A stretch of DNA of 17,975 nt from Patescibacteria group bacterium (lineage in GTDB: Bacteria; Patescibacteriota; Patescibacteriia; Magasanikbacterales; GWA2-37-8). How positions within the stretch are numbered: position 1 is the stretch's first letter; every line of letters begins with the position of its first letter. This document shows, piece after piece, positions 2,375 through 17,975 of this stretch. Location of the stretch: the NCBI GenBank assembly GCA_004321885.1, contig SCQK01000003.1, forward strand, positions 1 to 17,975. Direction: 5' to 3'. Under the pieces are notes generated by a model that saw only the letters and a program-made list of their open reading frames with translations, was not told the origin of the DNA and did no database searches. Both the position numbers and the translations under genes were made by a program.

Positions 2375-2505
2375 GGGTCTGTCGCCAAATCACCGCATCT
2401 GTCATTCCTGCGCAAGCAGGAATCCAAAACAACAGCCTTTTAAGCCAAAATATGGATTCCTGCTTTCGCAGGAATGACAACTTTAACCATTTGGCGACAG
2501 ACCCC
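2375..2505. repeat. composite palindromic element: outer 16-bp IR GGGTCTGTCGCCAAAT enclosing two inverted family-A hairpins
   Basis: Outer IR sits at 2375-2390 and 2490-2505. Inner hairpins are TGTCATTCCTGCGCAAGCAGGAATC (2400-2424) and GGATTCCTGCTTTCGCAGGAATGACA (2454-2479). Listed ORFs 2149-2427, 2239-2589 and 2292-2600 are mirror translations of this palindrome (MDSC.RRND...ATDP on both strands). Confidence 0.8.
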
Positions 2506-2520
2506 AAGGGGAGGAAAACC

Positions 2521-2553
2521 GACAAAACAAAAATCGCCTCTGATGAGACGATT
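2521..2553 (-). terminator. intrinsic terminator for the 4593-2575 operon; a conserved module shared with 9478-9512
   Basis: Minus strand shows AATCGTCTC-ATCA-GAGGCGATT followed by TTTGTTTTGTC. The same AAACAAAAATCGCCTC..GACGA module recurs at 9478-9512, also preceded by GGGGAGGAAAACC. Confidence 0.55.
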
Positions 2554-2574
2554 CTCTGGTATCTAAATTGTAAA

Positions 2575-3606
2575 TTATTCACGGTATAATTTTCGGACAT
2601 CCACCAGTTCAGGATGCTGGCTTAATATGGTTATCGCGTCACTCATGGTTTTTCCCGAATGAAGCGCGATAATAATTCCTTCGGCGTCAGTCAGAGCCAC
2701 CAGCGATGATTTACCGCTCAATACATTCTCCGTCTCCAAGCCAAACAATTTAATCATCGCTGAATTATTTTTATCATTGGCCAGAAACCAGCCGCCCAAC
2801 TTTTCTATATGCTCGAATAAAAAATCATGCGCCGAATCCGGCTCGGGGTAGCGACAGCCGACCTCTAAAATACAAGCATATTTATTTTCATACGGCTCAT
2901 CAATGCCGACATCATCGTATTTTCTTTTTTGGAGAGCAAAGATATAAAACTTTTTATTTTTAGGAATTTTAGTAACGGAAAATTTGTCCAACTCATTTGA
3001 TTTAATAGAATCACCAGGCTTCAAAGGCGCTGTTCCCCCCACTTTAAGAATTCCGAATTTATTTATCCCATTAAGAAAATTAAAATTTGCCAAATTTGGA
3101 TAGAACCTCAAAATAAATAATACGTCCTTCAATCCCCTGTTTGGAAACATACCGGCAATTCTGCCTTCGTGATTTCCAACAATAACAAGTGATTTAATAT
3201 GCTTATTTTCGGGAAGATCAAGACCAAAAAATTCTTCGTCCGTTGCTTGATATGTATCCTCCACTTGCAGCCAGCCACCCATAGTTTGTATCAAAGCGCC
3301 GTCAACGCCGCAATCTTCGTTTATGCACCAGGTGCCCGGTTCTGCCACGCTCACATAAAATTTTTGCCCAGCGGGTATCTTTAGGTGGGGAGCAAAAGTG
3401 GTATCGCCAGGCCCGCCCGGCATTTTGCTTCCAATTGTTAACGAGTCAATCTTTGACGGATTTTCCCACGAGCGATTAATTTTTCGCACGCTGCCTTCCG
3501 GTAATTGGGTGTATGGTTGAATAACAGAGAAAATTACAATAAAAGCAAGGAAAATAATAACTAGGCCGAGAACAACCCATTTAGATTTACTAAAGCCACC
3601 CATCAT
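2575..3606 (-). CDS. hypothetical N-terminally membrane-anchored extracytoplasmic protein, 343 aa
   Basis: An N-terminal hydrophobic segment (WVVLGLVIIFLAFIVIFSVI) follows a short basic stretch. The start lies 3 nt after the upstream gene's stop, so the two are probably translationally coupled. No confident family was identified. An isolated GNHE tetrapeptide is not enough to call a metallophosphatase. Confidence 0.55.
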   Translation of the reverse strand: MMGGFSKSKWVVLGLVIIFLAFIVIFSVIQPYTQLPEGSVRKINRSWENPSKIDSLTIGSKMPGGPGDTTFAPHLKIPAGQKFYVSVAEPGTWCINEDCGVDGALIQTMGGWLQVEDTYQATDEEFFGLDLPENKHIKSLVIVGNHEGRIAGMFPNRGLKDVLFILRFYPNLANFNFLNGINKFGILKVGGTAPLKPGDSIKSNELDKFSVTKIPKNKKFYIFALQKRKYDDVGIDEPYENKYACILEVGCRYPEPDSAHDFLFEHIEKLGGWFLANDKNNSAMIKLFGLETENVLSGKSSLVALTDAEGIIIALHSGKTMSDAITILSQHPELVDVRKLYRE

Positions 3607-3609
3607 ATT

Positions 3610-4593
3610 TCAAAGAACAACTTCTAAAAAACCAATGCTTTCACCGTCGCCTTTTCTGGATTTCATCAATATCTGACACAACTCATCCCAGCGCTCAATT
3701 TCTGTTAAAGTAACGCAACCGAGCGAAAAGCTGCCGGGATGAACATAACGATCGTCGCTTTTATGGGTGGTCTTGAACCAGACCATTGCGAGGTCGGCTC
3801 TATCAAGATAATATCGGCCTCCATCATGAGAATGGTCAGGAATTTTAATGTCATAAAGTTTTCTTTGCCAAGGGTCTGGGTCATCTTTGTAGTCCTGCGT
3901 TTCGTAAGTTTTATTTCCAAACTTTAATAAATTTTTGGATCTGTAATAAATTAGATGAACCGGGCCGGTTTGGTGATTTGTCGATTCCAAATATGAAACA
4001 CCGCCCGATTCTAACTTTACGGAAGCTTTCTCATCACGCCAGGGGTCTTCTAAAATTGTAAAATACTGACGCTTTAAATCTTGCTTGTCTAATTTAACTT
4101 TGAGATATGCAGGCAAGGCAATCTCCATATTTTTATTTTCTAATTTCACGATAGTCCATCCGCCTTTTCCTTTTTCAAAAGAGACATATAAAAAGGCGTC
4201 GGACACTACGGCTTCCAGTGTTATTTCAAAAACAGCGGCTTTTGTTCCCCAGGACTTACCCGATGTTGAATGGGTTTCTTTAATCGGGACCTTGAAAGTA
4301 AGCTGTTTAAATTTTTTTGAGGTATTAATTTCTACATCGCTTTGGACACTGCCGACGTCGTTAAATAAAATGTCTTTTTCAATAACGGTAATTACGGCCT
4401 CGGCTTTAAATATCTGTTGATCAGTTTCAAATTTTCCCACTTCGCTGTCAATTTTAGCCGTTGCGCCGGCTTTGATTTTTTTATCCACGCGTAAAAACTT
4501 TCCCAGTATTTCAATTTCCACGCGAATATCATCACCAATGGAATCGCCGCTGTATTTTATTTTTGAAAGTTTTAATTGAACGGATTTAAGCAT
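3610..4593 (-). CDS. hypothetical protein, 327 aa; the C-terminus weakly resembles the L,D-transpeptidase (YkuD-like) His/Cys catalytic motif
   Basis: ATG-initiated ORF with no signal peptide. The C-terminal segment TTHKSDDRYVHPGSFSLGCVTL has His-x16-Cys spacing like hGT...SxGC(I/V)R in L,D-transpeptidase folds. This rests on motif resemblance alone. Confidence 0.5.
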   Translation of the reverse strand: MLKSVQLKLSKIKYSGDSIGDDIRVEIEILGKFLRVDKKIKAGATAKIDSEVGKFETDQQIFKAEAVITVIEKDILFNDVGSVQSDVEINTSKKFKQLTFKVPIKETHSTSGKSWGTKAAVFEITLEAVVSDAFLYVSFEKGKGGWTIVKLENKNMEIALPAYLKVKLDKQDLKRQYFTILEDPWRDEKASVKLESGGVSYLESTNHQTGPVHLIYYRSKNLLKFGNKTYETQDYKDDPDPWQRKLYDIKIPDHSHDGGRYYLDRADLAMVWFKTTHKSDDRYVHPGSFSLGCVTLTEIERWDELCQILMKSRKGDGESIGFLEVVL

Positions 4594-4605
4594 AAATTTA
4601 GTTTG

Positions 4606-4857
4606 TTAGCTTAATCGTTTTCTGTCTTCCGACTTTTTTAAATAATTTTTCTTGGAAACAATGCTTTTTCCAAGACGTTTTTCCAATTGTTTTCTCGCGC
4701 CACCGGCGATGTCGCTTCCGGCTTTGGCATCGTTTTTAAGCTTGGGCAGTCCTTGCGAATTTTCATTGCGGTGAATTTCCGTGGTAGCGCGCTCACCGAG
4801 CATGGTAAAAATTAACTCAAAATCATCCATGTGGTCGCGCAGATTTTCCCGCTGCAA
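4606..4857 (-). pseudogene. C-terminal remnant of a DinD/RhuM-like protein (DNA-damage-inducible protein D family), N-terminal Bro-N part missing
   Basis: The translation has DHMDDFELIFTMLGERATTEIHRNENSQG...SDIAGGARKQLEKRLGKSIVSKKNYL. The motif G(G)xxAR+xLExxxGKxVVSxxNYL is characteristic of the DinD C-terminus. The 'start' is a TTG at 4855-4857 directly abutting the 78-bp palindrome. Only about 80 of the roughly 270 aa are present. Confidence 0.5.
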
Positions 4858-4866
4858 ACCTTTTAC

Positions 4867-4944
4867 GGGTCTGTCGCCGAATTACTATTTCTGTCATTCC
4901 TGCGCAAGCAGGAATGACAGAAATAGTAATTCGGCGACAGACCC
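4867..4944. repeat. 78-bp perfect palindrome, family A with GGGTCTGTCGCCGAAT terminal inverted repeats
   Basis: GGGTCTGTCGCCGAATTACTATTTCTGTCATTCCTGCG|CAAGCAGGAATGACAGAAATAGTAATTCGGCGACAGACCC. The two halves are exact reverse complements. It lies between the DHS stop (4970) and the DinD remnant. Confidence 0.9.
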
Positions 4945-4969
4945 CAGTATCAATCCACAGCCCAAAAAA

Positions 4970-5992
4970 CTACCCTAAAAAAGAGGCGAAATTGCGCGGT
5001 CCGCGGTTCTTCCAATTGCCTTTGTGATAAACGTAGCTGACGATAAGCGGGAGGACGGTCGTGGCCTCGGCAAACACCATCTGATCGTTATTGCTTTTGG
5101 CGTCAACCTTGCCCCAAGAGCTGGCTTCTTTAAGGGTGGAGCTGGAGCAGGCGCCGTCACGCGCGTCGGCCACGGTAATTTGCACCGCGTATTTATGCAT
5201 GGGCACTTCCTGACCCAGCACCTCGGCGCAAACCACTGTGTCCTGGGTGAAATTTTTGGGCACGCCGCCGCCGACCATAAACACGCCGGTATCTCCGGCT
5301 TTTATTTTTATTTTCGTCAATTCGTAAAAGTCCTTTACCGAATCAATGGACATGTGCTTGTCCGGATTGTTCACCTGATGAAGCACCAAACCAAAACCGG
5401 CGCTGGAATCGGAAAAAGCCGGACAGAAAATCGGCACGTCGTGCTCGTAAGCCGCTTGCACCAACGAATCCTTTTTCTTGCCGTGTGTGACTAAATACTT
5501 ACCCATCTCGCGGATGAATTCGCGCGAAGAATACGGACGCGATTCCAGTCCGTCGGCGATGGCGAGAATTGTTTTGTCGCAAACCTGCAATGATTCTTCA
5601 TCAATAAAAGTGTCGTAAATTCTGTCTATGTACAACCCGCGCAAAATGCTGTCGTCTATTTCCTGCGAACCGCGGTAATGCTTAAATCCAAGGGCCTCAA
5701 AAAAGTCCATGTCCACGATGCTGGCGCCGGTGGCCACGATGGCGTCCACCATTTTGTTTTTCACCATGTCAACATAAATCTGCATGCACCCGGCCGCGCT
5801 GGTGGAGCCGGCCAGAGTGAGGATAACGCTGGCGCCTTTGTCGGCCAGCATCTTGTCGTAAATCTCGGCGGCCCGCGCCGTGTCGCGCGCGCTAAACGAC
5901 ATCTGCGCCATCTGTTCTATCACCGGCCGCGCGTCAAAACTCTTGATGTTAAAATGTTTTATCTCCTCCTTTAACAAATCTTGTTTTTGCAT
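4970..5992 (-). CDS. deoxyhypusine synthase family protein (DHS / homospermidine-synthase-like)
   Basis: Colinear matches to DHS motifs: VPIFCPAFSDSSAGFG (cf. IPVFSPALTDGSLGDM), MVGGGVPKNF (cf. ILGGGVVKHH), DARDGACSSS..SWGKV (cf. DGSDSGARPDEAVSWGKI), VFAEATTVLPLIVSYVY. Confidence 0.85.
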   Translation of the reverse strand: MQKQDLLKEEIKHFNIKSFDARPVIEQMAQMSFSARDTARAAEIYDKMLADKGASVILTLAGSTSAAGCMQIYVDMVKNKMVDAIVATGASIVDMDFFEALGFKHYRGSQEIDDSILRGLYIDRIYDTFIDEESLQVCDKTILAIADGLESRPYSSREFIREMGKYLVTHGKKKDSLVQAAYEHDVPIFCPAFSDSSAGFGLVLHQVNNPDKHMSIDSVKDFYELTKIKIKAGDTGVFMVGGGVPKNFTQDTVVCAEVLGQEVPMHKYAVQITVADARDGACSSSTLKEASSWGKVDAKSNNDQMVFAEATTVLPLIVSYVYHKGNWKNRGPRNFASFLG

Positions 5993-6126
5993 AAAAAATA
6001 AGTTATATTGGCTATGCCATATATGCTCATTCGCTCGGAAACAAACGAGCTTGCGCTCACTTGTTTCTCTCGCTCATTTCGTATATAATTGCCATAATTG
6101 TAGCAACATAAGCTTTTTTTTGCAAT
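5993..6126. promoter_or_regulatory. divergent promoter region between DHS and the aguB-aguA-apt-mtnP operon
   Basis: TATAAT at 6085-6090 lies about 36 nt before the amidase ATG. Direct repeats GCTCATTCGCTC (6025) and CGCTCATTTCG (6071). An imperfect IR GAAACAAACGAGC/GCTCACTTGTTTC is centred near 6052. A T8 tract sits at 6113-6120. Confidence 0.4.
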
Positions 6127-6990
6127 ATGTCCCACATAAAGAAAATCGTTACGCTCGGCCTCATCCAAATGCAATGCGACGACGACCCGAAAAAAAACTT
6201 AGCCACAGCCATAAAAAAAATACAAGCATGCGCCAAAAAAGGCGCGCAAATTATTGTTTTGCCCGAGCTATTTTTGTCCAAATATTTTTGCCAAGAGAAA
6301 AATGAAAAAAATTTCGCCTTAGCCGAAACCATCCCAGGCGCGGCCACCGAAATTTTAGGCCAACTGGCTAAAGAAAACAGACTCGTAATTATTTGCTCGC
6401 TTTTTGAAAAAAAGGCGAACAAATATTTTAATACCATTGCCGTCATTGGCACCGACGGCCGCGTACTGGGCGCTTACCGCAAAATGCACATCCCATCGCT
6501 TCCGCCCGACCTCTACGCCGAAGATTATTATTTTGAAAAAGGAGATAAATTCAAGGTATTTGACACGGCTTACGGCAAAATCGGCACACTCATCTGCTAC
6601 GACCAATGGTTCCCGGAGGCCGCCCGCTACTGTGCGGCTTTGGGTGCGCAAATTTTAGTTTATCCCACGGCTATCGGCTGGCCGCTTCATGACCCGCAAT
6701 GGAAAAAAAACGCGGAACACGAGGCCTGGCAAATTACCCAGCGCAGTCACGGCATAGACAGCAATGTGTTTGTGGCGGCGGTCAATCGTGTTGGCTTGGA
6801 AAAAAATATGAAATTTTGGGGCGCGTCCTTTGCCAGCGATTGTTACGGCCGCGTCATCGCCAAAGCCTCCAGTAATAAAGAAGAAAATATAATTGTTAAA
6901 TGCGATTTAGGACTAATTGAACTTATGCGCGAGGAATGGCCCATGCTAAGCGAGCGCAGAATAAAAGTAGAGAACCAAAAAATATTATGA
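6127..6990 (+). CDS. aguB: N-carbamoylputrescine amidase (carbon-nitrogen hydrolase family)
   Basis: Nitrilase-superfamily catalytic triad in context: LPELF (Glu), RKMHIP (Lys), LICYDQWFPE (Cys). It is 287 aa, sits immediately upstream of agmatine deiminase, and overlaps it by ATGA. Confidence 0.8.
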   Translation: MSHIKKIVTLGLIQMQCDDDPKKNLATAIKKIQACAKKGAQIIVLPELFLSKYFCQEKNEKNFALAETIPGAATEILGQLAKENRLVIICSLFEKKANKYFNTIAVIGTDGRVLGAYRKMHIPSLPPDLYAEDYYFEKGDKFKVFDTAYGKIGTLICYDQWFPEAARYCAALGAQILVYPTAIGWPLHDPQWKKNAEHEAWQITQRSHGIDSNVFVAAVNRVGLEKNMKFWGASFASDCYGRVIAKASSNKEENIIVKCDLGLIELMREEWPMLSERRIKVENQKIL

Positions 6991-7988
6991 AATACCGCCT
7001 GCCCGCAGAATGGGAGCCGCATGAAGCCACCTGGCTGGCCTGGCCGCACTACGAAAAACACTGGCCCGGCAAATTTGAGCCGATTCCATTCGTGTATGAA
7101 AAAATCGCGCATGCCTTGGCGCAAAACGAAAAGGTAAATATTTTAGTAAATGATGAAGCCATGGAAAATGGCGCTAAAAAAATTCTGGGGAACAACTTAA
7201 ATAATATCTATTTTTACCGCGTGCCAACCAACTCTTCCTGGACCAGAGATTACGGCCCCATTTATGTAAAGGATGAAAACGGAAATTTACTGGCCGAGGA
7301 TTGGATTTTTAACGCCTGGGGTGGGCAATGGGAATATAATTTAGACGATGTGGTGCCGCAAAAAATCGCCGGCCTGCAAAAAATCCCTCTCATTTCCACG
7401 AAATTGGTTTTGGAGGGAGGGTCAATAGACGTAAACGGCAAGGGTTCGCTTCTCACTACTCGCCAATGCCTGCTCAATAAAAACCGCAACGGCAATCTCA
7501 CGCAAAAACAAATTGAAAAGAGCTTGGCTGAATTTCTTGGAACCGCCAATATTTTATGGCTGAACGAGGCAGTAACCGGCGACGACACGAGCGGCCACAT
7601 TGATGAACTGGCCAGATTTACAGACGCGAATACTATTGTCTGCTCGCTGGAGGAAAATCCAGCTGATGTGAACTACGGGGGGCTGAAAAAAAATTACGAG
7701 GATTTGCTCGCCATGCGCGATGAGAAAGAAAAAAAATTCAATGTTGTTCCCCTGCCCATGCCTGATCCGGTGATTTACCAAGGGCAGAGATTGCCGGCCA
7801 GCTATTGTAATTTCTACATCGCCAATTCCGTCGTGCTGGTGCCTGTTTTTAACTGCCCCAAGGATAAAATCGCGCTTGAAACTTTACAAAAACTCTTTCC
7901 CGACCGCCGCGTCATGGGCATTGACTGCGTTGACCTGGTCTGGGGCCTGGGCACGATTCATTGTTCAACTCAACAACAGCCTAAATAA
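6987..7988 (+). CDS. aguA: agmatine deiminase (porphyranase-type peptidyl-arginine deiminase fold)
   Basis: MKYRLPAEWEPHEATWLAWPH N-terminus and C-terminal catalytic GTIHCSTQQQP. The start is moved to the ATG at 6987, overlapping the amidase TGA stop (ATGA). The listed ORF start at 6936 adds a 17-aa extension inside the upstream gene. Confidence 0.85.
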   Translation: MKYRLPAEWEPHEATWLAWPHYEKHWPGKFEPIPFVYEKIAHALAQNEKVNILVNDEAMENGAKKILGNNLNNIYFYRVPTNSSWTRDYGPIYVKDENGNLLAEDWIFNAWGGQWEYNLDDVVPQKIAGLQKIPLISTKLVLEGGSIDVNGKGSLLTTRQCLLNKNRNGNLTQKQIEKSLAEFLGTANILWLNEAVTGDDTSGHIDELARFTDANTIVCSLEENPADVNYGGLKKNYEDLLAMRDEKEKKFNVVPLPMPDPVIYQGQRLPASYCNFYIANSVVLVPVFNCPKDKIALETLQKLFPDRRVMGIDCVDLVWGLGTIHCSTQQQPK

Positions 7989-7993
7989 ATTAT

Positions 7994-14231: not shown

Positions 14232-15350
14232 ATGATAAAAAAAATCCTGTTTATCAGTTGTTCGGCCGGTTCGGGCCATATTAAAGCCGCCGAGGCCCTA
14301 CATCTGGCCTGTGCTAAAAAATACCCGCAAATCCAATCGTGGCACTTCAATATTTCCGACGACTGGAATTTTCTTCTGCGCCATTCAGTCACCACTCCTT
14401 ATGAATTCGCCTTAAAGCATTACCCGGCGCTTTTCGGCGCGGCCTACAAACTCACCGACAGCGCCCCCCTCACCAAGGCGGGCCAGCTCTTTAATTTTTT
14501 GCTCCGTTTCGGCGTGCAAAAACATTTGGATAAAATAAGCGAGTTCGGCCCGGAGGCCGTGGTCTATACCCACTTCATCCCGGCGCTGATGCTGTCTAAA
14601 TTTTTGGACGCGCCGCAATACATGCTCGTTACTGATTATTACGCGCACAAAATTTGGCGCGTGCCAAACATGAAAGCGTTTTTCGTGCCGACCGAAGAAA
14701 CCAAAAAAAGCATGGGCAAATTCGCGCCCGCTTGCGCGATTACCGGTTTACCAGTAAGCCCGGAATTCAAAAAAGTAAAACCCATCGCGGAGCTAAAAAC
14801 AAAACTGGGCCTGACAAACGACCAGCCGGTTGTTTTATTTATGCCGACGGTTCCCGGAAAAGTGGATATTGGGAAAGTGGTGCTGTCATTGCGAACGGAA
14901 CGAAGCGGAGTGAAGCAGTCCCCCGCGATTGCGGATGGGATTGCTTCGCCCTATCGGGCTCGCAATGACAAACAGCTAAACATTATTATTATCCTCGGAA
15001 AAAACCAAGGGGATATCGCGCCTTCTGAAAATTTACGGGTCATTAAGCCGGTCCCAAACATAGACGAATACATGCGCATTGCCGACGTCATCGTCACCAA
15101 AGCCGGGGGTATGAGCATTACCGAAATCGCCTATTTGCGCAAGCCAATGCTCATCATCAACCCTATTCCGGGCCAGGAAGAATACAACGCGAAAATTTTC
15201 TGCAAGCTTGGCTACTGCCTCGTTGCCCGCGACAACGACGAACTGGAAGCAAAAATAAAAGCCGCTCTAAGCGGCCAACTTTTCTTCAAGGCGCCGCCGC
15301 TACAGGATGCGGCGGAAAAAATTTTGAACACGATTTTTGGGCAGGGGTAA
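14232..15350 (+). CDS. GT28-family glycosyltransferase of the MGDG-synthase/UgtP (diacylglycerol glycosyltransferase) type
   Basis: N-terminal ILFISCSAGSGHIKAAEAL (cf. UgtP LILTANYGNGHVQVAKTL), central MLVTDYYAHKIWRVPNMKAFFVPTEE, and C-terminal VTKAGGMSITEIAYLRKPMLIINPIPGQEEYNA (cf. [33 protein letters not shown]). Confidence 0.75.
   Translation: MIKKILFISCSAGSGHIKAAEALHLACAKKYPQIQSWHFNISDDWNFLLRHSVTTPYEFALKHYPALFGAAYKLTDSAPLTKAGQLFNFLLRFGVQKHLDKISEFGPEAVVYTHFIPALMLSKFLDAPQYMLVTDYYAHKIWRVPNMKAFFVPTEETKKSMGKFAPACAITGLPVSPEFKKVKPIAELKTKLGLTNDQPVVLFMPTVPGKVDIGKVVLSLRTERSGVKQSPAIADGIASPYRARNDKQLNIIIILGKNQGDIAPSENLRVIKPVPNIDEYMRIADVIVTKAGGMSITEIAYLRKPMLIINPIPGQEEYNAKIFCKLGYCLVARDNDELEAKIKAALSGQLFFKAPPLQDAAEKILNTIFGQG
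14884..14970. repeat. 87-bp element bounded by 11-bp inverted repeats TGTCATTGCGA/TCGCAATGACA, inserted in-frame within the glycosyltransferase CDS
   Basis: Its ends share TGTCATT/AATGACA with family A. It is 87 bp (29 codons), encoding LSLRTERSGVKQSPAIADGIASPYRARND in the inter-domain loop. That loop is about 21 aa longer than the same loop in UgtP. Confidence 0.5.
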
Positions 15351-15354
15351 ATTC

Positions 15355-15822
15355 CTATTGCCTTCTCTCGTCCAGCCCCTGACTCTCGGGCTGGTAATTG
15401 GGCTGGATATAGACGCCTGACTGATTGATGTCTTCGTAGCGGTTTAGCGCCAGCTTGATGGCAAATGTGGTGATGGACCAGGCGGCCAAAATAATAATGA
15501 GCCCGATGACAGAATTAAACATCCATTTTTTCGCTTTAGTCACCTGCTCGTCGTTGCCCCCGGCCGTCATCCACAAAACTCCGGCATAGATGATAATGAC
15601 AACCATGAGCAGTCCCACCAGGCTCAACATAATGCGAATCATTCCGGCCGCGGTGATGCGCGGGTCCACTGGTTCGCCATAGCCCGCGCCTTTTTGGCCG
15701 CCGGCGGCCTGAAACTGGTTGCTGATATCCGCGCCCACGCTTTTATTTACGTCCGCGCTAAAAACAGGCGCCGCGAAAGCGAAGAGGGAAACGAGGAATA
15801 GTAAAATAATTATTTTACGCAT
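15355..15822 (-). CDS. VirB2/TrbC-like pilin family protein (paralog 1 of the tandem array)
   Basis: Signal peptide MRKIIILLFLVSLFAFAAPVFSA, then core LSLVGLLMVVIIIYAGVLWMTAGGNDEQVTKAKKWMFNSVIGLIIILAAWSI. Polar C-terminal tail with no Cys. Start is moved to the ATG at 15822, which overlaps the upstream stop as TGAtATG. Confidence 0.75.
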   Translation of the reverse strand: MRKIIILLFLVSLFAFAAPVFSADVNKSVGADISNQFQAAGGQKGAGYGEPVDPRITAAGMIRIMLSLVGLLMVVIIIYAGVLWMTAGGNDEQVTKAKKWMFNSVIGLIIILAAWSITTFAIKLALNRYEDINQSGVYIQPNYQPESQGLDERRQ

Positions 15823-15823
15823 A

Positions 15824-16339
15824 TCACCACAAATTGCTCCAAAAATTCTTGGCCGAGCCGGTAAAGCCCTTGCCAAAACCCTGCCAAAATCCGCCGGTCT
15901 GGGCCCCGGCGCTTTGGCCCACCTGCCCGGCGCCGGGCTCGGTGACCCGAAACACGCCCATTAAAATAAAGGCGGTCAGGCTATAGGCCGCCACCACGAT
16001 AATCAGGCCGACAACCGAAGAGCGGATAATTTTTTGCGCCTTTTCTACGCGCTCGTCATTGCCCCCGGCTGTCATCCACAAAATGCCAGCGTAGACAGTC
16101 AGTATCAAAAAAACAGTGCCTGTGAGCGACAAAATCACCCGAATTATCCGGCCTACATTTTCGGACAAGGTGGTGTCTGTCACGTTTGTTTCAAAACCGC
16201 CGGTGCCGGCCACATTGGAAGCCATCCCGCCCGGGCCAATGCCGATATCGGGCGCGGCCAAGACCATCGTGACGGATAAAAAGAATAGAGAATAGAGAAT
16301 AGAGAATAGAGAGACGAAGAAAATAATATAATTTTTCAT
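15824..16339 (-). CDS. VirB2/TrbC-like pilin family protein (paralog 2) with a Gly/aromatic-rich C-terminal tail
   Basis: MKNYIIFFVSLFSILYSLFFLS signal peptide, encoded by 4x GAATAGA. Core LSLTGTVFLILTVYAGILWMTAGGNDERVEKAQKIIRSSVVGLIIVVAAYSL. Start is at the ATG at 16339; the listed ORF start at 16447 is an upstream extension. Confidence 0.75.
   Translation of the reverse strand: MKNYIIFFVSLFSILYSLFFLSVTMVLAAPDIGIGPGGMASNVAGTGGFETNVTDTTLSENVGRIIRVILSLTGTVFLILTVYAGILWMTAGGNDERVEKAQKIIRSSVVGLIIVVAAYSLTAFILMGVFRVTEPGAGQVGQSAGAQTGGFWQGFGKGFTGSAKNFWSNLW
16283..16310. repeat. 4 perfect tandem copies of the heptanucleotide GAATAGA within the signal-peptide coding region
   Basis: 16283-16289, 16290-16296, 16297-16303 and 16304-16310 are identical. 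On the coding strand, (TCTATTC)4 encodes SILYSLFSI. Confidence 0.9.
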
Positions 16340-16343
16340 AATG

Positions 16344-16907
16344 CTATAAGGGTGAGCAATCCTGCGCGCAACTACTAACCGGCTGTCCCTGACAAGTGGA
16401 GGGACTTTGGCCGACATAACAAGTTCTACTTTCGAAAACGCCTCCATTAATTTTTACAACACAACAACCAGCATCATTTTGTGAACCGCTTGTCTGCTGA
16501 TTTTGTTGCTGTGACGCTGCGCCGCCGGATGAATTACTCCCGCCCATCTTCGTGGTCACAAAATACGTAATCGCGTAAGCCGACAAAGTGATAAACAAAC
16601 CGATAATGCAGGCCTTGATTATCTTATGCGCTTTTTCCACTTTTTCCTGCTCGCCCTGGGCCGTCATCCAAAGAATGCCGGCATAAACCATTAAAATCAA
16701 AAATAAAGTGCCCACCAGCGACAAAGCGGTTTTAACCACCGTGCCCACCGTGGTGGAAAGCTCTTTTTCCAGGCCAACGTCTCCGACCGCGTTGTCCAAA
16801 GTTTTCATGGCATTGCCCAATCCCTTTTGCGCCAGAGCATCGCCGGACAAAAAGAATAGCGAATAGAGAATAGGGAATAGAGAAACGAGGAAAATAATTT
16901 TTTTCAT
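16344..16907 (-). CDS. VirB2/TrbC-like pilin family protein (paralog 3) with a Cys-rich C-terminal domain
   Basis: MKKIIFLVSLFPILYSLFFLS signal, core LSLVGTLFLILMVYAGILWMTAQGEQEKVEKAHKIIKACIIGLFITLSAYAI. A Ser/Gln-rich linker leads to a tail with 6 Cys (CCVVKINGGVFESRTCYVGQSPSTCQGQPVSSCAQDC). Confidence 0.75.
   Translation of the reverse strand: MKKIIFLVSLFPILYSLFFLSGDALAQKGLGNAMKTLDNAVGDVGLEKELSTTVGTVVKTALSLVGTLFLILMVYAGILWMTAQGEQEKVEKAHKIIKACIIGLFITLSAYAITYFVTTKMGGSNSSGGAASQQQNQQTSGSQNDAGCCVVKINGGVFESRTCYVGQSPSTCQGQPVSSCAQDCSPL
16854..16881. repeat. degenerate heptanucleotide tract (GAATAGC GAATAGA GAATAGG GAATAGA) in the signal-peptide coding region
   Basis: Same position and register as 16283-16310 in the adjacent paralog. 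The two flanking ~60-bp gene 5' ends are about 85% identical. Confidence 0.8.
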
Positions 16908-16926
16908 ACATATACCCCTCTCATTG

Positions 16927-16948
16927 CCCCTCCCTTAAAAGGGGGGGG
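16927..16948. repeat. family B hairpin CCCCTCCC-TTAAAA-GGGGGGGG upstream of pilin paralog 3; contains a G8 tract
   Basis: G8 tract at 16941-16948. Lies 20-40 nt upstream of the ATG at 16907. Confidence 0.55.
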
Positions 16949-16970
16949 ATAAAGGGTGAGGTTTTAAAAA

Positions 16971-17564
16971 TCATTCATGACAACACACATTATCAACGCC
17001 GCCCGGACATAAACCCGACTCTTTAACTTTTGGCGGTAAACAGCTGGCGGCAGGGCCGCAAGAGCCAGTGGAAGAATACTCGCATTTCGTAATACAATTG
17101 CCACTTCTACAAACACTATTGTCACCGCATTTTGTATTATCGTTCTGTCCTTGGCAAGACGCCACTTGCCCTCCCGCGCCGCTCCCCCCGCCACCCCCCA
17201 CCAGATTGGTAAACACAAAGCGCGTAATGGCGTAGGCGGCCAAAACTATCACCAAGCCGATTATCGCCGTTTCCATTATCTCCTTACCCTTCTCCGCTTT
17301 TTCCGGCTTACCCAAGGCTGTCATCCACAACACGCCGGCGTACAGAATAAGCCCGAAAAAAATAATGCCGATGAGCCCCAGGCCCACGCCGATAATGTCG
17401 CCGATAAGTACCGGCACTGTTTTTTGGCTGATGGGCAGTTTGGAAAGCTCGGCGTTGTCGGCCGCGGTCTTTAAGCCGTATTTATCCTGCGCCAAAACAG
17501 CGGCGGCGGATAGAAGGCCGGTGATCAGCACAAAAATAAGGATTATTTTTTTTGTCAGTGACAT
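16971..17564 (-). CDS. VirB2/TrbC-like pilin family protein (paralog 4) with a Cys-rich C-terminal domain
   Basis: MSLTKKIILIFVLITGLLSAAAVLAQ signal, core IIGVGLGLIGIIFFGLILYAGVLWMTALGKPEKAEKGKEIMETAIIGLVIVLAAYAI. A Gly-rich linker leads to a tail with 10 Cys (…CQGQNDNTKCGDNSVCRSGNCITKCEYSSTGSCGPAASCLPPKVKESGLCPGGVDNVCCHE). Start is at the ATG at 17564; the listed ORF to 17696 runs through leader repeats. Confidence 0.75.
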   Translation of the reverse strand: MSLTKKIILIFVLITGLLSAAAVLAQDKYGLKTAADNAELSKLPISQKTVPVLIGDIIGVGLGLIGIIFFGLILYAGVLWMTALGKPEKAEKGKEIMETAIIGLVIVLAAYAITRFVFTNLVGGGGGSGAGGQVASCQGQNDNTKCGDNSVCRSGNCITKCEYSSTGSCGPAASCLPPKVKESGLCPGGVDNVCCHE

Positions 17565-17576
17565 AGTTATACGTTG

Positions 17577-17661
17577 GCTCCATAGTCCCCGCAGGGGCTG
17601 TGGAGCCAGCTTGCAACTTGCAACACGGCTCCACAGTCCGCCTTTGGCGGAACTATGGAGC
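17577..17661. repeat. family D hairpins (GGCTCCAYAG ... CTRTGGAGCC) plus direct repeat CTTGCAA x2 in the pilin leader
   Basis: 17577-17608 GGCTCCATAG-TCCCCGCAGGGG-CTGTGGAGCC and 17626-17661 GGCTCCACAGT-CCGCCTTTGGCGG-AACTATGGAGCC. Confidence 0.75.
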
Positions 17662-17678
17662 CACCCGTGAAAGTATTT

Positions 17679-17777
17679 CCCTACAGAGGGTTGCACGCGC
17701 GACCCCGACTGTGGATTCCTGCTTTCGCAGGAATGACAGTTGAAACAGGAACGCGCGCGCGAACCCTCTGTAGAGGG
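17679..17777. repeat. nested palindromic element: outer IR CCCTACAGAGGGTT..CGCGCG / CGCGCGCG..AACCCTCTGTAGAGGG around a family-A core (17713-17738)
   Basis: The core GGATTCCTGCTTTCGCAGGAATGACA is identical to 2454-2479. The outer arms are about 22 bp. Confidence 0.75.
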
Positions 17778-17790
17778 TTCCCATATTAAA

Positions 17791-17975
17791 CTAAGGCGTA
17801 ACAGGCGTGCCTCCGGCTCCGGTTGTCGCCGAAACCAAAGACTTCAGCACAAAGTTGGCCAAGGCGTAAGCCGCGAAAATAATAATCAGACCGATAATGC
17901 CCGAGAAAATCCATTTCTTGCCCTGGGTAACTTTCTCGTCATTGCCGCCGGCCGTCATCCAGGTAAAGCCGCCGA
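17791..17975 (-). CDS. VirB2/TrbC-like pilin family protein (paralog 5), N-terminus beyond the window
   Basis: The minus-strand frame gives GGFTWMTAGGNDEKVTQGKKWIFSGIIGLIIIFAAYALANFVLKSLVSATTGAGGTPVTP* with a TAG stop at 17791-17793. No start lies in the window, so it is absent from the ORF track. Confidence 0.7.
   Translation of the reverse strand, partial: GGFTWMTAGGNDEKVTQGKKWIFSGIIGLIIIFAAYALANFVLKSLVSATTGAGGTPVTP

Follow-up and report, generated by a model that had tools for sequence, protein, structure and literature searches.

The complete 17,975-bp contig (SCQK01000003.1, hereafter the window) of the NCBI metagenome-assembled genome (MAG) 'Patescibacteria group bacterium' carries eight short hairpin units, here called family A. 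Very probably they are CGTC-1/NTS/SRM hairpins, i.e. single-stranded DNA (ssDNA) targets of the GIY-YIG nucleases known as Ssn, present at high density in a genome of the Patescibacteria (candidate phyla radiation, CPR). Judged from its sequence, the element is the same that has been named dRS3 or NTS in Neisseria and SRM (Ssn-related motif) elsewhere. The observations behind this assignment are the sequence identity with NTS/SRM, the folding of the units as hairpins, their occurrence in multiple phyla, their association with ssn genes in other genomes, including CPR genomes, their bias towards intergenic DNA, and the in-frame insertion of a related dimer in a protein-coding gene. The units, the larger palindromes around some of them, and the related dimer are the following (z values are relative to shuffled sequences).

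2375-2504, no strand: composite palindrome with outer inverted repeat (IR) GGGTCTGTCGCCAAAT (2375-2390 / 2489-2504) around two units paired tag-outward (HH); ssDNA fold -46.6 kcal/mol, z = -12.5.
2400-2426, plus strand: unit TGTCATTCCTGCGCAAGCAGGAATCCA, with TGTC tag, 8-bp stem, 4-nt loop and CCA tail; fold z = -4.5.
2453-2479, minus strand: unit TGTCATTCCTGCGAAAGCAGGAATCCA, partner of 2400-2426, with a 26-nt spacer between them.
4867-4944, no strand: perfect palindrome of 78 bp, sharing the outer IR of 2375-2504 (GGGTCTGTCGCCGAAT) and having a fused symmetric core TGTCATTCCTGCGCAAGCAGGAATGACA (4892-4919); fold -47.1 kcal/mol, z = -19.
9679-9706, minus strand: degenerate unit with disrupted stem, second of two tandem units 3′ of pnp; fold z = -0.23.
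9711-9738, minus strand: unit TGTCATTCCGGCTCATGGGCCGGAATCT, with 9-bp stem, 1 nt past the pnp stop codon (9740-9742); fold z = -5.1.
12978-13005, plus strand: canonical unit TGTCATTCCCGCGAAAGCGGGAATCCAG, 7 nt upstream of the rpsO start; fold z = -4.2.
14057-14103, minus strand: loop-expanded unit (inner GC hairpin), 9 nt upstream of tRNA-His (14113-14185); fold z = -2.5.
14884-14970, plus strand: tag-outward dimer of the sister hairpin type TGTCATTGCGA...GCAATCC, in frame in gene 14232-15350.
17679-17777, no strand: second composite type, outer IR CCCTACAGAGGGTTGCACGCGCG / CGCGCGCGAACCCTCTGTAGAGGG, with one unit inside (17712-17738, minus strand); fold -35.1 kcal/mol, z = -8.7.

The motif GGAATGACA was found nine times in the window as an exact match, compared to 0.12 matches expected from shuffles, and the pattern GATTCC-N10-40-GGAATGACA seven times, compared to 0 expected. 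The local density is about 1 unit per 1.8 kb. Every copy listed in a preliminary description of this DNA, made from the sequence alone, was present; the arms of 9-10 bp attributed there to the repeats need correction, as the paired stem consists of ATTCC plus 3 nt (8-9 bp), with the tag and the tail unpaired. When all eight units are read in one orientation, they follow the order 5′-TGTC, ATTCC plus 3 nt, loop, 3 nt plus GGAAT, CCA-3′, the stem having the form ATTCCYGC-loop-GCRGGAAT. With an unpaired TGTC tag at the 5′ end and an unpaired CCA tail at the 3′ end, the units are asymmetric and thus oriented: two are on the plus strand (2400-2426 and 12978-13005), five on the minus strand (2453-2479, 9679-9706, 9711-9738, 14057-14103 and 17712-17738), and one is symmetric (4892-4919). 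The TGTC tag is 5′ of the stem in 8/8 units, and only 4892-4919 is tagged at both ends, this being also the only copy with TGTCATTCC/GGAATGACA on both arms. The 3′ tail is CCA in five units, CCC in one and CTA in one, and the fused copy is without tail. In ssDNA folding, seven of the eight units formed 8-9 bp hairpins well beyond those of shuffled sequences, while the decayed copy 9679-9706 folded no better than its shuffles. The loop is of 4 nt in six units, the exceptions being the expanded loop of 14057-14103 and the degenerate 9679-9706. Position 6 of the stem covaries (T:A, C:G or G:C), and ATTCC/GGAAT, the tag and the tail are constant.

Concerning the identity of the units, the copy at 12978-13005 differs from the Neisseria NTS consensus CGTCATTCCCGCGMAVGCGGGAATCYRG by a single mismatch (T for the first C) and satisfies the published SRM regular expression, which gave 0.05 matches per shuffle. 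Three other units are within 4 substitutions of NTS, two of them forming a compensatory stem pair, as seen in 2400-2426 (4 substitutions, 2 of which are such a pair); in general, the non-canonical copies differ mainly by a compensatory change of a C:G stem pair to T:A. The NTS contains the older Neisseria repeat dRS3 and is bound and cut, only as ssDNA and only on one strand, by SsnA, a 94-aa single-domain GIY-YIG nuclease (cd10448) (PMC11893778). The cut is made a few nucleotides 5′ of the hairpin, and the RNA form of the sequence is not bound by SsnA (PMC11893778). The GTC located 5′ of the palindrome is required for SsnA cleavage, and the C located 3′ of it is the most critical for binding (PMC11893778); in the window, this GTC is kept in 8/8 units and this C in 7/8. 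In many bacteria, NTS-like SRM flank ssn genes, which encode single-domain GIY-YIG nucleases of about 95 aa; the usual layout resembles a minimal insertion sequence (IS), with a hairpin on each side of the gene and both tags pointing outwards (PMC11893778). Strand-specific binding and cleavage of ssDNA have been demonstrated only for the Neisseria and Wolbachia proteins (PMC11893778). Neither the CPR/Patescibacteria, nor intragenic copies, nor the Rickettsia palindromic elements (RPEs) are mentioned in that work (Chenal et al. 2025, Nat Commun 16:2388; PMC11893778).

The window units also fit all the descriptors of the CGTC-tagged repetitive extragenic palindromic (REP) sequences, whose family CGTC-1 was defined by Di Nocera, De Gregorio & Rocco (2013, BMC Genomics 14:522; PMC3733652). 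These have a tag CGTC (with variants TGTC and CCTC) at one end, a stem of 8-9 bp beginning with A-T/T-A, a loop of 4-5 nt and a tail CCA, and they form dimers among which the HH (tag-outward) predominate and the TT are rare (PMC3733652). They are mostly intergenic, near the 3′ ends of open reading frames (ORFs) and probably transcribed. Occasional copies are intragenic and in frame, as dimers that code for 20-30 aa, and certain species have their dimers nested within a longer palindrome (PMC3733652). The features shared by the window units are thus the TGTC tag, the 8-bp stem starting with AT, the 4-nt loop, the CCA tail, the HH dimers, the intergenic location, the in-frame dimer, the nesting and the lack of an associated transposase. 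The differences are that the host is here a Patescibacteria MAG, outside the five phyla listed in 2013 (PMC3733652), that the tag is uniformly TGTC, that there are two types of outer palindrome, and that one dimer is collapsed to a perfect 78-bp palindrome.

The distribution of the hairpin in other genomes was explored with the pattern GATTCCYGCNNNNGCRGGAATGACA, for which about 1 chance match is expected in the 596 Gb of the genome collection searched. It was found at no fewer than 120 loci of species-representative genomes (at least 120 species-level genomes), belonging to about two dozen phylum-level groups by their record titles, and at a minimum of 120 loci of viral contigs. Among the genome matches listed there were 13 CPR loci and one Nanoarchaeota MAG. 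Given these loci, the family is not genome-specific, as it had been described at first. On the other hand, the general class proposed for it, short intergenic REP/MITE-like palindromic repeats (MITE standing for miniature inverted-repeat transposable element), some of them nested in longer IRs, was borne out.

The neighbourhood analyses covered the 240 hairpin loci listed (genome plus viral; 2.0 Mb). The consensus across them was TGTCATTCC(C/T)GCG-AAA/AAG-GC(G/A)GGAATCCAG, the positions after GGAAT being C, C/T, A and G. Eight Ssn-type ORFs were found in these loci, and in six cases the distance to a hairpin was 8 bp or less. When the ORFs located up to 50 bp from a hairpin were clustered without bias, the largest cluster not of phage structural proteins was that of the Ssn-type GIY-YIG proteins; the other clusters consisted of phage structural proteins from related viral contigs, and no cluster of Y1 or RAYT (REP-associated tyrosine transposase) proteins appeared among them. 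Taking the window together with these loci, neighbouring hairpins were paired tag-outward in 59 cases, inward in 18 and directly in 36; the window pairs 2400-2479 and 14884-14970 are both tag-outward, and the ssn genes lie within tag-outward pairs, with gaps of about 270-330 nt. An unusual arrangement is that of Flavobacteriaceae bacterium GF1 (locus L083, 6556-7826), with five tag-inward pairs at a period of about 300 nt, array-like and unlike the usual outward dimers. A profile of Ssn-type proteins retrieved at least 8000 candidates from the protein database, with CPR proteins among the top matches. In two CPR genomes, Wildermuthbacteria (GCA_016186005.1) and Gribaldobacteria (GCA_002793155.1), TGTCATTCC...GGAATCCAG hairpins lie on either side of the ssn gene, and the 27-mer upstream of the Gribaldobacteria ssn is identical to the window copies 2453-2479 and 17712-17738. 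So, the likeness to the NTS/SRM-Ssn system includes a near-identical sequence, the conserved GTC and C, and the SRM-ssn-SRM layout in independent loci.

It seems reasonable to interpret each unit as a strand-specific ssDNA hairpin, with an unpaired TGTC tag, an 8-9 bp stem starting with ATTCC, a 4-nt loop and a CCA tail. The window copies would be non-autonomous derivatives of a hairpin-ssn-hairpin unit, occurring singly, in tag-outward dimers or, in one case, as a fused dimer, which would have spread into intergenic DNA; in this lineage, the units are also found at the core of longer palindromic, MITE-like modules. If so, this genome presumably encodes an Ssn, this putative Ssn would be expected to cleave the window copies, the copies are or were probably mobile, and their effects may concern the handling of ssDNA and recombination rather than RNA.

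Several points weigh against this interpretation. No transposition mechanism has, to our knowledge, been demonstrated for Ssn or SRM anywhere. Moreover, the GIY-YIG nucleases are hydrolytic, so that spreading would need host repair or ligation. Neither presence/absence polymorphism nor target-site duplication of the window copies was seen. The search for an ssn/GIY-YIG gene or gene fragment on the 17,975-bp contig (regular expression, tblastn and hmmsearch with --max) gave nothing significant, which is a difference from the loci where SRM flank the gene. The 3′ C on which SsnA binding depends is missing from the fused copy 4892-4919, and the TGCGA-type variant, i.e. the sister hairpin of 14884-14970, falls outside the published SRM regular expression. 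Finally, about 19% of the SRM-rich genomes are without a detectable SsnA homologue (PMC11893778).

Another aspect of the window is the nesting of three of its seven hairpin blocks in longer palindromes (2375-2504, 4867-4944 and 17679-17777), which was upheld both by the inverted repeats and by the folds. The terminal inverted repeats (TIRs) of the composites are of 16-23 nt, the outer IR GGGTCTGTCGCCAAAT of 2375-2504 being of 16 nt. The palindrome 4867-4944 has 37-nt arms that are 100% complementary, and its core 4892-4919 is exactly what would be left by a deletion between both GCAGGAAT octamers of a dimer of the 2400-2479 type. The outer palindrome at 17679-17777 (CCCTACAGAGGG...) is unlike that of the other two composites. 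Four GGGTCTGTCGCC arms are present in the window, flanking exactly two composites, with a distance of 13 nt between GGGTCTGTCGCC and TGTCATTCC in every arm. The same distance was found in the left arm, the one tested, of a contig from the JGI metagenomes (L260), which was the only true composite retrieved there with a pattern of outer IR plus hairpin, the two other matches being due to chance. So, there are three copies of the GGGTCTGTCGCC-type modules, two in the window and one in L260. In the viral contigs, the outer IR GGGTCTGTCGCCRAAT gave 17 single matches with no hairpin nearby, consistent with chance according to a rough estimate. No target-site duplication was evident in the flanks of the outer-IR composites, no parent IS with the TIRs of the composites was found, and no empty GGGTCTGTCGCC palindrome is present in the window. 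Both GGGTCTGTCGCC modules abut gene fragments. That at 4867-4944 adjoins a 5′-truncated gene (4606-4857, minus strand), as had been pointed out in the preliminary description; this ORF matches only positions 196-266 of 274 of phrog_15286, i.e. the last quarter of a phage-type protein of about 274 aa. The fragment 2149-2373 and the genes 2575-3606 and 3610-4593 had no match in Pfam, NCBIfam or PHROGs. Close to the third composite, just upstream of a pilin gene, there is a complex nested palindrome (17575-17660; GGCTCCATAGT...CTGTGGAGCC...GGCTCCACAG...ACTATGGAGCC).

The possibility that nesting in larger palindromes is a general trait of the family was considered and discarded, after scoring the flanking IRs of 336 hairpin blocks: only five reach 10 or more matching bases, and the three strongest are all from this window. 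A precedent is found in Halothiobacillus neapolitanus, where the CGTC-1 dimers are always within a specific palindrome and there are no empty targets (PMC3733652). It may be that the outer-IR modules form a MITE-like family limited to this lineage, with the hairpin dimer at its centre.

The placement of the units was compared with the genes of the contig, whose content is CPR-like, with six T4SS-pilin paralogues, an rpsO-NYN-pnp cluster, polyamine and purine-salvage genes, and three tRNAs. The six blocks of the TTCC type are all located in intergenic DNA, which amounts to about 12% of the contig according to the ORF, Pfam and tRNA calls, so that the probability of this outcome is about 0.12^6 = 3e-6. 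This agrees with the non-random placement claimed at first. Two of the individual locations claimed were also confirmed, those next to the pnp stop codon (9711-9738) and in the tRNA-His leader (14057-14103). The claim that one hairpin overlaps the rpsO start codon did not hold: the likely start of this minus-strand gene is the ATG at 12971, where the S15 homology begins, 7 nt beyond the hairpin 12978-13005, and it is an earlier in-frame ATG, at 12983, that falls within the hairpin. Two units follow the pnp stop codon and precede a canonical terminator that is distinct from them (9633-9663, minus strand). A T tail was flagged in only one of the eight units (2456-2475), where it is weak or marginal, and the canonical terminators are at separate sites; the terminator role suggested for the repeats, as intrinsic terminators made of a GC-rich stem and a T run, was therefore rejected. 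A scan of the window with Rfam returned only the three tRNAs and sub-threshold, microRNA-like matches on the long palindromes.

Two alternative explanations attribute the units to a different machinery or to a different molecule. According to one of them, they would be REP/BIME (bacterial interspersed mosaic element) sequences mobilised by a RAYT, i.e. an IS200/IS605-type Y1 transposase, as suggested in the preliminary description. RAYT-associated REPs carry a GTAG tag, and RAYT is an HUH Y1 transposase. Here the tag is TGTC/CGTC, there is no Y1 transposase in the window or in the hairpin-adjacent ORF clusters of the 240 loci listed, and the flanked gene is a GIY-YIG nuclease. It is true that the short palindromes, the inverted dimers and the intergenic placement resemble REP/BIME, that the flanked gene resembles a minimal IS in both systems, and that the Ssn authors themselves draw the analogy with REP/RAYT (PMC11893778), but the 2013 survey found the CGTC repeats to flank no RAYT or other IS200-type transposase gene and to have no transposase associated (PMC3733652). 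Taken together, this makes the RAYT proposal scarcely credible. A better case, albeit still improbable, can be made for units that act mainly as RNA, as terminators, RNase targets or stabilisers of mRNA 3′ ends, and were selected for their role in gene regulation: the two units after the pnp stop codon are in the sense orientation, one is in the rpsO leader and one just before tRNA-His, and the frequent location of CGTC REPs near ORF 3′ ends, where they are probably transcribed, would fit with it (PMC3733652). Yet the single marginal T tail, the canonical terminator that pnp has of its own downstream, the mixed orientation of the units relative to transcription, and the failure of SsnA to bind the RNA form (PMC11893778) speak against it, and a generic stem-loop function leaves unexplained the near-identical sequence in multiple phyla and the conserved unpaired tag and tail. 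A role in RNA could be a secondary, non-exclusive effect.

Two other alternatives were considered. The GGGTCTGTCGCC-bounded modules could be MITEs in their own right, belonging to a conventional (DDE) transposon, that have merely picked up a hairpin dimer; mobilisation would then act on the outer TIRs rather than on the hairpins. This is suggested by the two window copies plus that of the unrelated contig L260, with their 16-nt TIRs and the invariant 13-nt distance, by the rarity of nesting elsewhere, with the window supplying three of the five best cases among the 336 blocks, and by a fragment of an rve-type transposase at positions 1-105 of the contig, where the C-terminal end of an rve/IS3-like transposase (…YNFERIHMSLNGLTPQQFYLQKCNP*) was observed. 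Against it count the lack of an evident target-site duplication, of an empty GGGTCTGTCGCC palindrome in the window and of a parent IS, the single true extra copy in the JGI metagenomes, the chance-level single matches in viral contigs, and the precedent of H. neapolitanus; on balance, we consider these MITEs possible but rather unlikely. As for the idea that the hairpins are maintained because IS110-family or phage recombinases use them as sites of integration, in the way meningococcal filamentous prophages use dRS3, it has in its favour that dRS3 is a phage recombinase target and REPs are IS targets in several genera (PMC11893778, PMC3733652), and that the hairpin is frequent in viral contigs. 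However, no IS110/Piv-type gene or prophage junction was found at any window unit, and such an exploitation of the repeat would leave its origin and spread unexplained, so that it appears very improbable. The assignment to the CGTC-1/NTS/SRM hairpins associated with Ssn was thus preferred.

The dimer at 14884-14970 deserves separate consideration. The preliminary description had included it as a variant of the family. A related palindromic pair is indeed present there, but it is of the sister hairpin type, with the layout TGTCATTGCGA(G)-inner GC stem-...GCAATCC, and, unlike the intergenic copies, it lies in frame inside an ORF for a glycosyltransferase similar to monogalactosyldiacylglycerol (MGDG) synthase (14232-15350). 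The sister type is enriched in the TTCC-type loci fetched, with 52 occurrences compared to about 4 expected. The element has 87 nt, i.e. 29 codons, and corresponds to residues 218-246 of the protein; two of its six frames are fully open and two more have a stop only as the last codon, the gene using one of the open ones. The ORF (372 aa) is intact, and the same intact ORF was found in an independent Logan contig. The insertion is absent from 11 homologues and falls between two Pfam domains. In the AlphaFold model of the protein (pLDDT 82.8, pTM 0.83), only residues 225-246 are below a pLDDT of 50, and they are modelled as a loop that joins a helix to a strand in the C-terminal Rossmann domain. 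According to the model, then, one dimer of the sister type appears to survive in frame as a disordered surface loop of the predicted glycosyltransferase. It is worth noting that the protein is also without about 11 residues (one helix) just downstream of the insertion; because of this loss, its function is unproven.

In Rickettsia, the RPEs are in-frame insertions in protein-coding genes, as summarised from Ogata et al. 2000/2002 in PMC10969869 and PMC3733652, and RPE-4 and RPE-6 are CGTC-tagged repeats (PMC3733652). The case of 14884-14970 shares with them a palindromic dimer in frame in the gene of a metabolic enzyme, with about 29 residues added and the modelled fold intact; it differs in being a single CPR case, and the likeness is one of placement and structure. 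By this analogy, the insertion can be regarded as a CPR counterpart of the RPE insertions of Rickettsia. A further and rather doubtful suggestion is that the unusually frequent long-palindrome cores of this CPR lineage, the invariant 13-nt spacing and the dimer collapsed by deletion could record the mechanism by which Ssn-associated elements propagate, and that the glycosyltransferase insertion would be the first RPE-like protein decoration seen in Patescibacteria. Propagation might involve extruded hairpins, whose single-stranded loop would be integrated into or copied through, or else a new composite MITE whose ends would be processed as ssDNA by the GIY-YIG nuclease.

CPR bacteria are thought to depend on DNA uptake. 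The contig analyzed falls within the host range of a repeat/nuclease system recently tied to the control of ssDNA and to natural transformation and, if CPR bacteria have an Ssn/SRM system, it could shape which incoming DNA recombines. The underlying biology is already known from other bacteria, and the value of the present results is incremental. From a practical point of view, the repeats fragment short-read assemblies: in an independent assembly, Logan contigs of the same run, SRR8426592 (L001, L002 and L269; 1.4-2.4 kb), end at family A copies, L001 within 2375-2504. In the annotation of MAGs, the repeats also give rise to false ORFs and to unusual extensions of proteins, N-terminal or internal.

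Other repeats were observed in the contig. A second hairpin family, CCCCTCCCCT-AAAA-GGGGAGGGG, occurs at 9444-9470, 13424-13446, 13616-13642, 14201-14227 and 16926-16952. Three of its copies are directly upstream of start codons, at 13418 (minus strand), 14232 (plus strand) and 16907 (minus strand), and their 3′ arm includes a GGAGG-like ribosome-binding site. Terminator-like hairpins on the minus strand, at 862-902, 2515-2556 and 9476-9510, share the plus-strand lead-in AAAACAAAAATC and may constitute a third family of small repeats. Imperfect inverted repeats of about 100 bp (6000-6100 and 8485-8585; about 70% identical) bracket a cassette of CN-hydrolase, agmatine deiminase and adenine phosphoribosyltransferase, and may be another repeat family or the boundary of the cassette. 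The six paralogous T4SS-pilin genes, five of them in tandem (13059-13418 and 15355-17975), are the source of most of the long 'direct repeat' families that appeared in the repeat scan. Lastly, between tRNA-Arg and tRNA-His there is a GC-rich island (13700-14010; 62% compared to 48% for the contig) with an Arg/Glu-rich ORF of 61 aa (13731-13916).

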